From contig CAIZXS010000005.1 in NCBI GenBank assembly GCA_903937035.1, positions 1-60,745 of the forward strand: 60,745 nt of DNA, written 5' to 3'. The first letter of the stretch is position 1; every line of letters starts with the position of its first letter. Positions 1,276-60,619 of the stretch are shown here, in pieces. The position numbers and the translations under genes were made by a program. The notes under the pieces were generated by a model. That model was not told where the DNA came from. It was given only the letters and a program-made list of their open reading frames with translations, and did not search any database. The stretch is from an uncultured bacterium (GTDB lineage: Bacteria > Patescibacteriota > Minisyncoccia > Moranbacterales > UBA2206).

Positions 1276-1409
1276 GTAGAGATGCATTTCAATGCGTCTT
1301 GGTGTGAAATTCCATCTTAGCCCATTATCGCATTTTGGGCATGACCTGATTTTTGCGATTTATTAATTTCACCTTCTGACCCACAAGACGCAATAAATTG
1401 CGTCTCTAC
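1276..1409. repeat. inverted pair of GTAG-type REP-like palindromes (REPIN-like doublet)
   Basis: GTAGAGATGCATTTCAATGCGTCT (1276-1299) and AGACGCAATAAATTGCGTCTCTAC (1386-1409) in inverted orientation. Confidence 0.7.
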
Positions 1410-5968: not shown

Positions 5969-6080
5969 ATGTTGTTACGATGAGATAAGAAAGAAATGAA
6001 AGAAACAACAGATCCTTTAAAAATCAATACCGCAATTGCCCGCACCCGAGGCCAAAGATAAATATCTGGGAGGAGGAAAT

Positions 6081-6533
6081 ATGATATTTCTGACAAGCGA
6101 CTCTGATTACAACTATGTAGTAGAAAGTATTGTTGACAAAACTGAGTGGAAAAAAGATTCAGTTGAGCAAGTAGTGATACTAGCCTATAAATCCATCCTC
6201 TACATCTTGCCAGTTGAAAACAACGAAGACTCCTGTACTGTAGTAAAGAGGTTTATTAATGAACACGGTAAACTAGATAGAAAATATCATAGAAGAGAAC
6301 AGTTTTATTGCGCAGAAGACAAATATAGGCTTGATGGCGATGATGAGGAAGTAATTATTATTGGTGATTATGTCACAAAAAATAATAAATATCCCCATAC
6401 ATTTCTCTGCTACCCACGCAGGTACGCAGATGAACCCTTGCAAGCCTCGAAAAACGACAGCTGGGCGAGAGAATGGCTAATCGAAGTCAACCCCAGAGGA
6501 GAGTTATTTCTTAAACTAGCAAATCTTCTGTGA
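6081..6533 (+). CDS. hypothetical protein
   Basis: ATG 6081 follows a strong GGAGGAGG SD. Has its own promoter and terminator. Confidence 0.65.
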   Translation: MIFLTSDSDYNYVVESIVDKTEWKKDSVEQVVILAYKSILYILPVENNEDSCTVVKRFINEHGKLDRKYHRREQFYCAEDKYRLDGDDEEVIIIGDYVTKNNKYPHTFLCYPRRYADEPLQASKNDSWAREWLIEVNPRGELFLKLANLL

Positions 6534-6539
6534 CACAAA

Positions 6540-6575
6540 CCCCGAACTGACAACATTCAGTTCGGGGCTTTTTTT
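6540..6575 (+). terminator. intrinsic terminator
   Basis: CCCCGAACTGA-CAACAT-TCAGTTCGGGG followed by a T-tract. Confidence 0.8.
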
Positions 6576-6608
6576 ATTTCAATATTAAACAATAAATAAA
6601 TCTATTTG

Positions 6609-8588
6609 TCAAATCAGGCGATTTCCTCCTTGCTTTTTCCCAAATGTTCCACGTGGAACATTTGCGTGGAACAATTTCCATAAAAACAGAATAAACAAAA
6701 CCAACCCAACAATCCCCCATTCTGACCAAATTAAAAGAAAAACATTATGCACAGGCTGATATTGCCAGATCTCGAGATTTGAAAATAGCCTCTCTGTGGT
6801 CATAATAAACTGACCCGTACCAACTCCAATAATCGGATTATCTGCAATGATTCGCTCTGAGATAGACAAATACAAACCCCTTTCCACGATTGACTTCACA
6901 AATAAAGCGTAAAATTCAACTCTAAGAAAAAACAATCCTGTCAATACGGCCAGTCCCAAGGCAAGTAATATCCTAAAATGTTCCACGTGGAACATTTTTT
7001 TTAAACTAATCCGCCTAATTGTTCCACGTGGAACATTTATGTATGCAAAAGCTATGACCAGCGCTAGGACAGCTGCTTTGGAAAAAGAAAGAATTATCCC
7101 AACAGCTTGAATCGCCAGAACGAGTTTGATTAAGCTCAATCCAATTGTTCCACGTGGAACATTTGGGATAGTTTTATTCCTCAAATTGTTCCACGCCTGC
7201 CCGCCGGAGCTTTGGCGTAGGCTGGTGGAACAATTTGCATTATTTTGCTCATCAAAATGTTCCACGTGGAACATTTTTTTATAAAGCATTGTCACTATGA
7301 TTGAAAAAAACAAAAATCCACCCAAAAGATTGGGATGCGGAAATAAGCCATAGGCTCGAATTACGGGGTGATAATTAACGACAATCTTTGCCACTCCGGG
7401 AATATCTTGTCCAACTAGGCTTTCTTTGAGGGAAAATAGTCCAAGCGAGTGCTGAACGACAAATTGAGCAATTCCAATCAAGGATTGCACGACACCAATA
7501 AGCACGATAATAGCAAAAAGAATACCCAGGACATTAAATGTTCCACGTGGAACATTTTCAGTATTTTCAAGTCGCAAATTGTTCCACGTGGAACAATTTC
7601 CTGGGCTAGGATATTTGACGAAACCAAAACCTGCTAAAATACCACAAATTAACCAAAATAAGACTTGACCTTGCCAGATATCCCACAAATAGTGATCAAA
7701 CAGCGCAATCACTGCAAGACCAAGTAAGATTGCGCGGAAATATTGAACTATTCTCTGAAAAACATAGTTAAATTGTTCCACGCCTGCCTGCCGGAGCCTC
7801 GGCGTAGGTAGGTGGAACAATTTAGCATCATCACCATCAGCTGCATTTGAAAATGTTCCACGCTTGACTGCCAAAGCCCTGGCGTAGGTTGGTGGAACAT
7901 TTTCAACATTTCCAACCCGCAAATTGTTCCACGTGGAACAATCATTTAAAGATAATAGAAAATAGGGCACGAATCTAATAGCAACATAAAGATACACCAG
8001 ATATAGCTCTAGAAATTTAACAGCCCGATAAACACCAATTACTCTACTTTCCGACCAAAAAACTGACGCGAATGACCAAATAACCAACAGAAGGGGAATC
8101 AGAAAAAAACCTGAATAATACAAATTGTTCCACGTGGAACAATTTGTATTATTTTTCTCCGTGGAATGTTCCACGTTTGCCCGCCGAAGCCCTGGCGTAG
8201 GAGGGTGGAACAATTTAGAAAATAATGCTTTAATATAGGCAATTATTCCTATGGATAACTTCTGAGCAAGTAAACTATCCACACTTTTTGTGTAATCTAT
8301 CTTGTGGATAAGTCCTAAGGTGTCATCACTGCCCATTGACTTATTTACTATTTTATTGTATAATATAGATATAAACCAAGCGACAATCGTGAAATACAAA
8401 AATATATCGGAAGCATAAACATATGCGCCGGTATATTCGTTAAAAGCTCCTTTCAAAGGAAGGTACAATATTACCTTTCTGACCCCAAGCGTAAAAGTCA
8501 ATAAAAACAAATAGAAAAACCAAATGTCTTTTGGCTGTTTTTTGGCTTCTTTCCAGATATTCCCCATCTTTTCAGTTAAATTTGCCAT
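6609..8588 (-). CDS. O-antigen ligase/Wzy_C-like polytopic membrane protein containing parS-derived peptide insertions
   Basis: Motifs RAYGLFPHPNLLGG, LSFSKAA, NPIIGVGTG and PVHNVFLL, with many TM helices. The repeated peptides VPRGT, CSTWNN and FHVEH come from the DNA palindrome. Confidence 0.8.
   Translation of the reverse strand: MANLTEKMGNIWKEAKKQPKDIWFFYLFLLTFTLGVRKVILYLPLKGAFNEYTGAYVYASDIFLYFTIVAWFISILYNKIVNKSMGSDDTLGLIHKIDYTKSVDSLLAQKLSIGIIAYIKALFSKLFHPPTPGLRRANVEHSTEKNNTNCSTWNNLYYSGFFLIPLLLVIWSFASVFWSESRVIGVYRAVKFLELYLVYLYVAIRFVPYFLLSLNDCSTWNNLRVGNVENVPPTYARALAVKRGTFSNAADGDDAKLFHLPTPRLRQAGVEQFNYVFQRIVQYFRAILLGLAVIALFDHYLWDIWQGQVLFWLICGILAGFGFVKYPSPGNCSTWNNLRLENTENVPRGTFNVLGILFAIIVLIGVVQSLIGIAQFVVQHSLGLFSLKESLVGQDIPGVAKIVVNYHPVIRAYGLFPHPNLLGGFLFFSIIVTMLYKKMFHVEHFDEQNNANCSTSLRQSSGGQAWNNLRNKTIPNVPRGTIGLSLIKLVLAIQAVGIILSFSKAAVLALVIAFAYINVPRGTIRRISLKKMFHVEHFRILLALGLAVLTGLFFLRVEFYALFVKSIVERGLYLSISERIIADNPIIGVGTGQFIMTTERLFSNLEIWQYQPVHNVFLLIWSEWGIVGLVLFILFLWKLFHANVPRGTFGKKQGGNRLI
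6645..8212. other. parS: cluster of parS-like centromere sites (TGTTCCACGTGGAACA)
   Basis: Nine intact 16-bp palindromes start at 6645, 6979, 7020, 7146, 7258, 7539, 7580, 7925 and 8126. Four copies are split by 30-nt inserts (7187-7232, 7774-7819, 7854-7899, 8167-8212), and there is a half-site at 6665-6673. Matches the widespread parS consensus TGTTNCACGTGNAACA and lies about 51 kb from dnaA. Confidence 0.85.
7195..8204. repeat. four copies of a 30-nt hairpin micro-element inserted in parS centres
   Basis: 7195-7224 GCCTGCCCGCCGGAGCTTTGGCGTAGGCTG; 7782-7811 GCCTGCCTGCCGGAGCCTCGGCGTAGGTAG; 7862-7891 GCTTGACTGCCAAAGCCCTGGCGTAGGTTG; 8175-8204 GTTTGCCCGCCGAAGCCCTGGCGTAGGAGG. Confidence 0.85.
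8250..8311. promoter_or_regulatory. DnaA-box cluster
   Basis: TATGGATAA (8250-8258, 1 mismatch), CTATCCACA (8275-8283, 1 mismatch) and TGTGGATAA (8303-8311, perfect). Confidence 0.5.
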
Positions 8589-8655
8589 AATAGTAGTCCA
8601 GATAATTACTAATAGTGTAGTATTTTTCCACTATAATCGCAAATTAAGATTAAAA

Positions 8656-8683
8656 TTGACTATCTCGCGTTAACTGTTATGAT
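8656..8683 (+). promoter_or_regulatory. sigma70-type promoter of tRNA cluster
   Basis: TTGACT-N16-TATGAT with TG extension, 25 nt upstream of tRNA-Ala. Confidence 0.6.
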
Positions 8684-8708
8684 TGATAAGGCGATATTTA
8701 TTTAAATC

Positions 8709-8781
8709 GGGCCTGTAGCTCAGTTGGTAGAGCGCTTCCATGGCATGGAAGAGGCAAGGAGTTCGATCCTCCTCAGGTCCA
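8709..8781 (+). tRNA. tRNA-Ala(GGC)
   Basis: Cloverleaf: acceptor GGGCCTG/CAGGTCC with G3:U70, anticodon arm CTTCC-ATGGCAT-GGAAG, T-loop TTCGATC. Confidence 0.95.
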
Positions 8782-8793
8782 CAGATTTAGTTT

Positions 8794-8867
8794 GGATGAT
8801 TAGCTCAGCTGGTTAGAGCGCACGATTCACATTCGTGAGGTCACTGGTTCGAACCCAGTATCGTCCA
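8794..8867 (+). tRNA. tRNA-Val(CAC)
   Basis: Acceptor GGATGAT/ATCGTCC, anticodon arm CACGA-TTCACAT-TCGTG, GGTTCGAACCC. Confidence 0.93.
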
Positions 8868-8891
8868 CAATTAAACATTCGCGTTATCCAA

Positions 8892-8963
8892 GCCTTCATA
8901 GCTCAATGGATAGAGCAAATCCGTCCTAAGGATGAGATGTAGGTTCGATTCCTACTGAGGGCA
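8892..8963 (+). tRNA. tRNA-Arg(CCT)
   Basis: Acceptor GCCTTCA/TGAGGGC, anticodon loop GTCCTAA, GGTTCGATTCC. Confidence 0.92.
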
Positions 8964-8974
8964 CATTATGAGGG

Positions 8975-9047
8975 GAGCAAATCCGTCCTGAGGATGAGCT
9001 GTAGGTTCCCTGCCTGCCGGCAGGCAGGGATTCCTACTGAGGGCACA
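8975..9047 (+). pseudogene. partial duplicate of tRNA-Arg with a 20-bp palindrome in the T-loop
   Basis: Near-identical copy of the 3' two-thirds of the preceding tRNA, with CCTGCCTGCCGGCAGGCAGG (9009-9028) inserted at TTC^GA. Confidence 0.85.
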
Positions 9048-58899: not shown

Positions 58900-59236
58900 T
58901 TTTTCTTAAGTTAAATTATTTATAGCTAACCAATTGAAAGTTTACCAATTATTTAATCAAAAGTCAATTAGAAAGCCCTTTTTGGCAAAAACCCAAAGTC
59001 CCATTCAATATAGGCCAAAAGCAGATAGCCCGATCCCGTAAAAGGCCCCAAACACTTGCTTTTTCATGTGCCCTATATTAACTTTAATATATTCACAGCT
59101 TATTAACAGTTTCCTCACTATTTCCAATTATTGACTTTTTTTCTCCTGTGCTATACTTTTTTCAATACTAAAAAAGTAACTCCCACCAAATACAAGCCTC
59201 TAGCTGTGCAAAATCATTAATCCTTTTTATAAATGA

Positions 59237-60619
59237 ATGCTCAATGAAGAACTTTGGCAAACAGCCCTTAGCGAAATAGAGCTTTTTATTTCCAAGGCCA
59301 ATTTCATTACCTGGTTCAAAAACACCAAGGTTGTTTCCAATGAAGAAGGTATTGTTATAATTAGTGTCCCAAACGGTTTTGCAAAAGAATGGCTAGAAAA
59401 CAAATACAATGCCTACATACTAAAGGCGCTAAAAAATATTCAGCCGAATATAAAGACGGTCTCATGCGTCATAGCAACGCCAAAAGAAAATCAAGCCCCC
59501 CAAAGAAGAGAGTCAATGGTTGATGCAATTGTCGCTCCAAAAAATTACAACCAAAAAAATCTCGAGAAAAAAACATTTTCTGTCAATCTAGAAAACAATC
59601 TTAACCCTAAATATACTTTTGAAAAATTTATTGTTGGCGGAAATAATGAACTAGCACACGCCGCTTGCATTGCCGTCTCACAAAATCTGGGAAAAATATA
59701 TAACCCCCTATTCATTTATGGTGGCGTAGGATTGGGAAAAACTCACCTAATCCAATCGATTGGCAATGAAATCCTAAGAAAAGACCACTCCTTTAAGGTA
59801 AAATATATCACTTCCGAAAGATTCACGTCTGAGCTCATAAACTCCCTGCAAGAACAAAAAATCAATGAATTTAAAGAATATTATCAAAAAATTGACATCC
59901 TAATTATCGATGATATCCAATTCATCTCAGGCAAAGAAAAAACTCAAGAAGAATTTTTCCATATCTTCAACTATCTATATCAACTCAATAAACAAATAGT
60001 GCTTAGTAGTGATCGACCCCCTAAGGCAATTCAAATTCTCGAGGAAAGATTACGCTCTCGCTTCGAAGGTGGAATGATTGCTGATGTCTCAAAGCCAGAC
60101 CTAGAAACAAGATTGGCTATTTTACAAAAAAAGGTGCTTGATGAAAATCTGGAAATCAGCCAAGAAGCACTAAACTTCATCGCAACAAACATCACAAACA
60201 ATATTCGCGAACTAGAAGGTGCCCTAAACCGACTCATTGTTTCAGCGCAACTCACCAAAAAAGAAATAACCTTGGATTTTGCCATAAACCAACTATCAGA
60301 ATTAATTTCAAGCGGAAAGAAAAAAGGCATTACCTATAAGCAAATATTAAAAACTGTTTCCTCCTTTTATGATATAACCCTGGATGATTTAATTTTGAAA
60401 AATAGAAAAAAAGAAGTTGTTAGGCCAAGACAAATTGCTATGTACCTCATGAGACACGAATTACAATTTTCCTATCCAGGTATTGGAGAGAAATTAGGAG
60501 GAAGGGATCACACAACAGCAATCCATGCTTTTGAAAAAATCTCCAAAAACTTATTAGACGATGAAAAGTTATCCGAAGAGATTAATCAAATTCGTGAGCA
60601 GATATATAAAATAGATTAA
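59237..60619 (+). CDS. dnaA: chromosomal replication initiator DnaA
   Basis: LNPKYTF, YNPLFIYGGVGLGKTHL, IDDIQF, RLRSRF and GGRDHTT. Confidence 0.98.
   Translation: MLNEELWQTALSEIELFISKANFITWFKNTKVVSNEEGIVIISVPNGFAKEWLENKYNAYILKALKNIQPNIKTVSCVIATPKENQAPQRRESMVDAIVAPKNYNQKNLEKKTFSVNLENNLNPKYTFEKFIVGGNNELAHAACIAVSQNLGKIYNPLFIYGGVGLGKTHLIQSIGNEILRKDHSFKVKYITSERFTSELINSLQEQKINEFKEYYQKIDILIIDDIQFISGKEKTQEEFFHIFNYLYQLNKQIVLSSDRPPKAIQILEERLRSRFEGGMIADVSKPDLETRLAILQKKVLDENLEISQEALNFIATNITNNIRELEGALNRLIVSAQLTKKEITLDFAINQLSELISSGKKKGITYKQILKTVSSFYDITLDDLILKNRKKEVVRPRQIAMYLMRHELQFSYPGIGEKLGGRDHTTAIHAFEKISKNLLDDEKLSEEINQIREQIYKID

Follow-up and report, generated by a model that had tools for sequence, protein, structure and literature searches.

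How do several predicted centromere sites of one gene come to carry a 30-nt hairpin at their exact centre? The question is raised by a stretch of 60,745 nucleotides (contig CAIZXS010000005.1, hereafter the window) from a Moraniibacteriota-like genome, designated G000, which comprises 1,222,898 bases in 26 contigs. In the window, four predicted chromosomal parS sites are split by GC-rich hairpins, next to intact copies of the same site. The reading favoured here, and regarded as probable, is that the inserts are a non-autonomous hairpin repeat, akin to the repetitive extragenic palindromes (REP), whose integration would strongly prefer the parS dyad.

Split and intact parS sites in the window

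A search of the window for the two arms of the site separated by 20 to 40 nt (TGTTCCAC-N{20,40}-GTGGAACA) returned four matches, all on the plus strand and all with an arm spacing of exactly 30 nt; none of 100 dinucleotide-preserving shuffles contained a match. The split units, the intact sites and the gene which contains them are the following:

7187-7232, plus strand, split parS 1, with arms at 7187-7194 and 7225-7232 and insert at 7195-7224; minus-strand peptide CSTSLRQSSGGQAWNN
7774-7819, plus strand, split parS 2, with a 30-nt insert at 7782-7811; minus-strand peptide LFHLPTPRLRQAGVEQ
7854-7899, plus strand, split parS 3, with a 30-nt insert at 7862-7891; minus-strand peptide NVPPTYARALAVKRGT
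8167-8212, plus strand, split parS 4, with a 30-nt insert at 8175-8204; minus-strand peptide LFHPPTPGLRRANVEH
6645-8141, no strand assigned, span of the nine intact TGTTCCACGTGGAACA sites found by exact-word search
6609-8588, minus strand, host gene, encoding a 659-aa Wzy_C (O-antigen-ligase-like) membrane protein, open through the 13 units and the four inserts

The inserts, in the order listed GCCTGCCCGCCGGAGCTTTGGCGTAGGCTG, GCCTGCCTGCCGGAGCCTCGGCGTAGGTAG, GCTTGACTGCCAAAGCCCTGGCGTAGGTTG and GTTTGCCCGCCGAAGCCCTGGCGTAGGAGG, are GC-rich and all point the same way, with 5-8 differences in 30 positions between any two. When the 46-nt split units were folded as single-stranded DNA, the inserts turned out to be imperfect hairpins prolonging the parS stem, with energies of -13.4, -13.2, -8.7 and -9.8 kcal/mol and, in the same order, z-scores of -3.6, -3.1, -1.6 and -1.8. 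They are translated, stop-free, in three different frames. An earlier examination of the same DNA, the sequence-only reading, had described four diverged hairpins of one orientation between parS arms, through which the reading frame is kept in different frames; the pattern search and the pairwise differences bear out the former statement, and the latter is confirmed by the presence of the quoted peptides in the open reading frame (ORF) at 6609-8588.

An ambiguity of one G places the insertion junction either at C8^G9, the dyad centre, or at G9^T10. No target-site duplication is present at the four junctions, where a single ambiguous G is common to element and target. All four split sites are covered without indels by contigs from four other public runs, belonging to three studies, so that an artefact of one assembly cannot account for the inserts, which, to the extent that contigs reveal it, appear fixed in the sampled population.

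The nine intact copies of TGTTCCACGTGGAACA start at positions 6645, 6979, 7020, 7146, 7258, 7539, 7580, 7925 and 8126, and are the only ones found in the whole genome when up to one mismatch is allowed. Adjacent units frequently lie 41 nt apart, with spacers of 25 nt, in runs. All 13 units, nine intact and four split, are in frame inside one ORF, the C-terminal part of which matches Wzy_C, the O-antigen ligase family (E 8.5e-14). That a centromere array should lie within an open reading frame is already unusual.

We take TGTTCCACGTGGAACA to be the perfect-palindrome version of the chromosomal parS consensus, of the 16-bp TGTTNCACGTGAAACA type. A ParB protein is encoded in the genome (ParB_N, PF02195, E 9e-34, 115.7 bits, at C19:35001-35273 within a 326-aa open frame). 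The dnaA gene is located at 59600-60082 of the window, on the same contig and about 52 kb from the array. As the cumulative GC skew is still falling in the last bin of the window, 59001-60000, which adjoins dnaA, the replication origin probably lies near that end. By palindromic structure, presence of a ParB gene and origin-proximal clustering, the sites have the properties expected of parS, and are treated as predicted parS sites throughout.

Two further words related to the site were noticed in the window: an orphan right half-site GTGGAACA at 6666-6673, 5 nt past the intact parS at 6645-6660, and a degenerate parS-like word, TATTCCATGTGGAACA, with two mismatches, at 2716-2731 inside gyrA.

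A dispersed family of hairpins

The sequence-only reading had proposed that the inserts are a non-autonomous element, and a dispersed repeat was indeed found. A fuzzy search, combined with a degenerate core pattern, detected about 25 copies of the 30-mer in G000, about 21 of them in addition to the four of the window, on 13 contigs. The 25 curated members derive from 85 raw matches at no more than two mismatches, after noise rows had been excluded by eye and the distinct GCCTTAGCTTTAGCGGTGG family by rule. Their consensus is about GCYTGCCYGCC-GRA-GCYNNRGC-GWA-GGYRGG, which folds into a 6-bp outer stem, a purine-rich 3x3 internal loop, a 3-bp inner stem and a loop of 2 nt. Covariation in the outer and inner stems was evaluated over 41 copies from G000 and its relatives:

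Stem pair of columns 9 and 34: CG in 22 copies, TA in 12
Stem pair of columns 11 and 32: CG in 22 copies, TA in 12
Stem pair of columns 20 and 23: TA in 25 copies, CG in 13

In the same 41 copies pairing collapses when the 3' partner is shifted by one or two columns, which, together with the covariation, argues that the hairpin fold itself is maintained.

A second hairpin family, GCCTGCCTGCCGGTAGGCAGG, is 21 nt long, is present in G000 in about 20 copies (a list of 23 rows, from which two with four mismatches and one opposite-strand duplicate were removed), and splits parS in related genomes. One of its copies lies in the window:

9008-9028, plus strand, 21-nt hairpin CCCTGCCTGCCGGCAGGCAGG, just downstream of the tRNA cluster at 8709-8964

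Thirteen of the 25 30-mers are contained in ORFs of at least 150 aa, 12 in antisense and one in sense orientation. The GCYTG strand coincides with the C-rich strand for 18 of 25 copies, while the 12 non-coding ones are divided 7 to 5; since the latter show no strand bias, the orientation bias follows genes, not replication. In-frame copies are hosted, according to Pfam, by genes for tRNA-synt_1, PheRS beta, HSP70, ATP-synt_ab_N (two copies), GrpE and UDPG_MGDP_dh. The insert in the class I tRNA synthetase is found in only one of 14 genomes of the genus, and a loop of the ATP synthase carries hairpins of different subtypes or orientations in six of 13 genomes and none in seven. On these comparisons, the hairpins are best described as small repeats that come and go. 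Copies persist in frame because their lengths, 21 and 30, are multiples of three and their usual orientation is free of stops.

Some members have a particular context. Four 30-mers (C1:59760, C4:55688, C11:44467 and C24:18063) share a stretch of about 23 nt upstream, ggcaagccacggagaatttactc, and may be the terminal part of a larger RNA or repeated unit. Others are located at the ends of tRNA genes, touching or overlapping them (tRNA-Ser at C1:81039-81068, tRNA-Gly at C11:53229-53258, tRNA-Ser/Pro at C12:71190-71219). An Rfam search of positions 6000-9000 of the window, with E values up to 1, detected no known RNA family over the hairpins, only three tRNAs; miRNA and sRNA matches in the same region were rejected, being far below the gathering scores and caused by the palindromes.

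Orthologous sites in related genomes

An orthologue of the Wzy gene was identified in each of the other 13 genus members and retrieved from 12. Twelve genomes, G000 and 11 others, were compared by protein alignment; G002 was left out, as its 458-aa ORF has 38% identity and no parS and is possibly a paralogue. Exact TGTTCCACGTGGAACA sites number between 7 and 12 per gene in ten of the 12 genomes, while in G010 (L022) and G012 (L024) only the variant word TGTTTCACGTGAAACA is found, at orthologous positions, as a concerted change of both half-sites. In further Moraniibacteriota loci the same gene contains up to 17 sites, with at least one in 62 of 80 loci. The split sites are distributed as follows:

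G000: 4
G001: 5
G011: 2
G007: 1
G008: 1
G009: 3, with mutated arms

These 16 split sites occupy ten orthologous positions, each of which is intact in most of the other genomes compared. For five of the ten, a split is seen in two or three genomes, where the inserts either are of different kinds (30-nt against 21-nt) or run in opposite orientations. At least 14 separate insertion events would be needed to account for this distribution. G006, which is among the closest relatives for the Wzy gene (68% protein identity), has 12 sites, none split. Matches to the hairpin core number 32-40 in the genomes with 30-nt splits, and the six genomes with seven or fewer have no split; G003 and G007, with 24 and 44, combine many matches with no 30-nt split.

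The sequence-only reading had suggested a comparison of the flanks of the four window copies, which was made: no homology extends beyond the unit and its AT-rich edge. Each window insert has a dispersed copy at least as close as the other inserts, with 2-6 differences in 30; that of split parS 2 differs at two of 30 positions from a copy within grpE (G000:C3:40957). Intact orthologous sites, inserts differing in type and orientation, and the lack of flank homology together argue for many separate insertions directed at the centre, and the comparison shows that the four window copies entered separately, at the dyad centres of parS sites already in existence.

Preference for the parS centre

The hairpins found within the Wzy genes of the genus are, in 16 cases out of 16, at the exact centre of a parS unit, and none is located in the 25-nt spacers; one further family copy in the genus loci, in G009, lies outside the Wzy gene. 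As the spacers are equally insert-derived and should tolerate insertion equally, selection alone cannot explain the central position. In other genera, GC-rich hairpins of 20, 21, 31, 33, 36, 39, 42 and 45 nt occur at the same central point. The survey beyond the genus revealed 18 split sites in ten of 80 loci, two of the ten being the same contigs as G001 and G011. Read in one of the two orientations, all inserts start with GCY beside CCAC.

The sequence-only reading had suggested that the element targets the apex of palindromes. The insertions at the parS dyad agree with this; as a general rule it is not supported. The genome-wide copies and an empty site were checked for a palindromic or C^G target, and no such preference was detected outside parS. 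Flank complementarity of at least 4 bp, directly adjacent to the element, was found for two of 20 21-mers and four of 21 30-mers, compared to 6.3% of random controls (n=5000), in a test which misses offset or imperfect stems; no convincing palindrome enrichment is present at the dispersed copies. The sole empty site reconstructed, that of the class I tRNA synthetase, has no palindromic structure. The left flanks of dispersed copies differ, and insertion 3' of a fixed tetra- or pentanucleotide, as for IS200/IS605-type elements, was not observed. None of the 60 CACGTG sites located outside intact parS in G000 is split. From these comparisons, parS is a special hotspot, not an instance of a general palindrome rule.

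Consequences for the split sites

The insert probably kills the site that it enters, by parting the predicted ParB half-sites by 30 bp. Such inactivation had been proposed by the sequence-only reading, and one relative gives it indirect support. In G009 all three split sites have 1-3 mismatches in the arms, and all seven intact sites are perfect, which fits a loss of constraint after splitting. On the other side, the arms are perfect in all 13 split sites outside G009, which fits recent insertion, and also retained function or concerted evolution. One decayed split site of G009 (L020, 2016-2061) has mirrored T>C and A>G changes in its arms (TGCTCCGC ... GTGGAGCA), which are still complementary, though no longer matching parS. 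The further suggestion, that continued parasitism selects for parS amplification, found no support, the number of intact sites per gene being 7-12 with or without splits.

Comparison with known repeats

The hairpins resemble the REP, BIME and REPIN sequences, which are short (20-40 nt), imperfect, GC-rich palindromes with tens of dispersed copies, sometimes intragenic. A repeated short imperfect palindrome is present in G000, in the form of 25 curated 30-mers and 20 21-mers. The organization is also similar, an unpaired 5' tag being followed by a hairpin with a stem mismatch, and a gene of the HUH/Y1 type resembling the REP-associated tyrosine transposases (RAYT) is present in the genome. On the other hand, the terminal GTAG/CGTC tag is missing: the 5' end of the 30-mer is GCYTG, ACTTG, ATTTA or GCTCG, and its GTAG is internal and often replaced by GAAG, GGAG or GCAG, although a different family, GTAGAGACGCATT..AATGCGTCT, does have the tag. 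Furthermore, REPs are mostly extragenic, whereas about half of the 30-mers, as reported above, are located inside ORFs. For these reasons, the hairpins are considered a variant of REP-like elements rather than members of the group.

REPs have been reported inside genes as well, and RPE-4 and RPE-6 treated as intragenic REPs, by Di Nocera 2013 (PMC3733652). In the article texts searched, no report was found of REPs preferring the dyad centre of parS, nor of repeats or hairpins splitting parS; related cases may be among the intragenic REPs of Additional file 3 of PMC3733652. The REP transposase TnpA-REP is described by Ton-Hoang 2012 (PMC3333891) as acting on single-stranded DNA only, requiring the GTAG tag and the stem mismatch, and cutting at C^T.

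The Rickettsia palindromic elements (RPE) are similar in that they are palindromic repeats, located in frame in essential genes of a small, gene-dense genome, to which they add peptide loops; an in-frame insert absent from orthologues, that of the tRNA synthetase, is found here too. RPE-1 is roughly 100-150 bp long. The hairpins described here differ in being 21-30 nt, in belonging to a different phylum and in having a recurrent hotspot at the parS centre. The small dispersed repeats (SDR) of heterocystous cyanobacteria, described by Elhai et al. in 2008, are reportedly tiny non-autonomous repeats of 21-27 nt, nested in each other and in hairpins. Such nesting resembles the parS/hairpin arrays discussed below, although the sequences are different, and we know of no link between SDRs and a centromere site.

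Precedents for palindrome-specific integration are IS1397, ISKpn1 and ISPpu9/10, insertion sequences which are reported to enter the centres of REP palindromes (PMC1525189, PMC12288879). These are full-length insertion sequences with their own transposase and target a REP, whereas here a REP-like hairpin inserts into parS. Miniature inverted-repeat transposable elements are defined by terminal inverted repeats and target-site duplication; the four junctions, as seen above, lack the latter.

A possible mechanism

In the proposed mechanism, a REP-like GC-rich hairpin would spread within Moraniibacteriota genomes and enter parS sites at the dyad centre, through an integration step with a strong preference for the middle of the palindrome. 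What the comparisons document is the pattern of insertion; as to its chemistry, we infer that strand transfer would most likely take place where palindromes close to the origin, prone to form hairpins and bound by ParB, are single-stranded or distorted, and that it would produce no target-site duplication. The split site would be lost, and its loss tolerated, with 7-12 intact sites remaining in the same gene.

To our knowledge, the enzyme that moves REP-like hairpins is unsettled even for classical REPs. The candidate in G000 is the RAYT-like HUH/Y1 ORF of 238 aa, at C5:135322-136038, on the contig of the window and outside it. A six-frame search of the genome for Y1_Tnp at E values up to 1e-3 detected nothing; the gene was revealed by a looser search followed by a scan of the whole ORF. 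It matches NF047646 (E 4.8e-17) with 62 bits, below the cut-off of 80, and Y1_Tnp with 32.2 bits against a cut-off of 23. An HxH motif is present, and the tyrosine motif aligns to that of TnpA-REP 4er8. The middle of the ORF is repeat-derived and holds two inverted GTAG-tagged repeats. That a RAYT-type HUH tyrosine transposase moves the hairpins is possible, though doubtful, and the gene is regarded as a candidate only.

Nested palindromes of "Russian-doll" type were found in G023 (L011, about 1985-2160) and G043 (L006, about 2125-2225). In these, one intact parS is flanked on the left by as many as four left half-sites, with GCTTGCCCCGTAGRA after every one, and on the right by the mirrored right half-sites. 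These arrays look like the outcome expected of repeated insertion of parS-bearing hairpins into a parS centre; mirrored tandem duplication is an alternative origin. A broader and rather speculative proposal, to which a low probability is assigned, is that in Moraniibacteriota hairpins are integrated into hairpins by a system directed at the dyad of parS sites with predicted ParB binding. Any hairpin tagged with 5' GCY could be mobilised by it, even a parS-tipped one, and the Wzy arrays would be formed, split and formed anew by selfish hairpins; the targeting factor would be ParB itself, or else the stalled fork or distorted DNA that it brings about. If true, this would explain the nesting in G023 and G043, with four left half-sites, one intact parS and four right half-sites.

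Alternative explanations

Several observations weigh against directed integration of a mobile hairpin. The count of events derives from a single MAFFT protein alignment of a repeat-rich gene, in genomes which, being kin, are not independent. G001 contains two identical inserts at neighbouring sites, 71 nt apart, which also match those of G011, and the two inserts of G011 differ by 2 nt. Filled and empty alleles do not coexist at any of the split sites in the contigs of the four runs, in which rare alleles are invisible, and transposition of the hairpin has never been observed. The RAYT-like ORF is not flanked by 30-mers or 21-mers and is interrupted by a different repeat, the GTAG-tagged one. 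Moreover, Y1_Tnp matches do not track hairpin abundance in the genus: G006 has five such matches and five core matches, G009 none and 17. Finally, dispersed copies have no palindromic or sequence-defined target from which the preference for parS could be explained.

Some of these points could be accounted for by copying within the array. In the simplest form, already put forward by the sequence-only reading, a single parS received one insert and the split unit was then duplicated, which would agree with the common orientation of the four window copies and with the identical pair of G001. The orientation, however, matches the coding bias seen throughout the genome, the four positions are intact in most orthologues while other genomes are split elsewhere, and the window inserts resemble dispersed copies at least as closely as they resemble one another and share no flanks; as a general explanation this was therefore rejected, and it is extremely unlikely. 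A milder version, with a few primary insertions per genome, after which the split allele spread by non-allelic gene conversion through the arms and AT-rich flanks, gains from the tendency of inserts to resemble their genome-mates more than inserts at orthologous sites elsewhere, from the identical inserts of G001 and the near-identical ones of G011, and from the concerted evolution of the arms in G010 and G012. It is at odds with the divergence of the G000 inserts, one of which differs from the grpE copy by just 2 nt. Conversion would have no more than about 11 nt of homology on each side to work with, and explains neither the first hits nor the presence of different insert types or orientations at one position. 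As an overall account it is judged rather improbable, while part of the copies in some genomes probably arose by local conversion or duplication.

Other explanations concern the origin or the role of the hairpins. Breaks or nicks at the parS dyad, due for instance to cleavage of the extruded hairpin or to a fork stalled by ParB, might be repaired by template switching, in which a GC-rich hairpin is copied from another locus, the hairpins being repair scars and not transposed elements. The occurrence of hairpins of several unrelated lengths (20-45 nt) at exactly the same point would be so explained, as would the absence both of target-site duplication and of a linked transposase. However, the flanks of dispersed copies show no evident microhomology to the centre of parS, the same families occur at non-palindromic sites of many genes, and the constant 5' GCY start beside CCAC, in one orientation, suggests defined element ends; such repair is considered unlikely. 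The split sites could instead be functional variants selected by the host rather than parasitic damage: the centromere might, for example, take a cruciform or hairpin form, the RNA might form a hairpin, or the added peptide loop might be useful to Wzy. Both 8-nt arms are perfect in the 13 split sites outside G009, the mirrored T>C change in one G009 site preserves arm complementarity, and compensatory changes keep the hairpin stem; covariation of the stem would, however, be predicted just as well for an element whose mobility depends on the fold. Since none of the split sites is shared throughout the genus, most genomes having an intact site at each position, and since arms decay in G009 and unrelated housekeeping genes contain copies of the repeat as well, selection for function is quite unlikely. 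Insertion of a REP-like hairpin at the parS dyad is, in comparison to all these, the explanation retained.

Other repeat families

A third, GTAG-tagged hairpin family, the GTAGAGACGCATT..AATGCGTCT sequences mentioned above, is present at about ten loci and occurs as inverted pairs, two of which are the following:

1276-1299 (plus strand) and 1386-1409 (minus strand), inverted pair in the window
G000:C5:135604 and 135767, pair located in frame inside the RAYT-like gene

The GCCTTAGCTTTAGCGGTGG repeat occurs at about 14 loci, on contigs C3, C4, C8, C11, C12, C16, C17, C23, C25 and C26 of G000, within larger conserved contexts, either gtcattcccgcgaccgcgtgcc...agcaaggcgggaatccag or agtcgaccgcgtgcc...agcaaggatctac. 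In some copies of these larger repeats the 21-mer takes the position of GCCTTAGCTTTAGCGGTGG.

Significance

Sites of the parS type are usually regarded as passive, conserved landmarks. Here they are found to be a recurrent target of tiny repeats across a candidate phylum, which provides a natural series of centromere sites, intact, freshly split and decaying. The series allows one to ask what number of parS sites suffices for a minimal genome, whether a dyad interrupted by a 30-bp hairpin is tolerated by ParB, and which enzyme mobilises the repeat; the exact, duplication-free junction at a 16-bp palindrome would be a handy substrate in vitro. The hairpins also illustrate how repeats may survive in gene-dense genomes, by lengths which are multiples of three and by an orientation that avoids stops.

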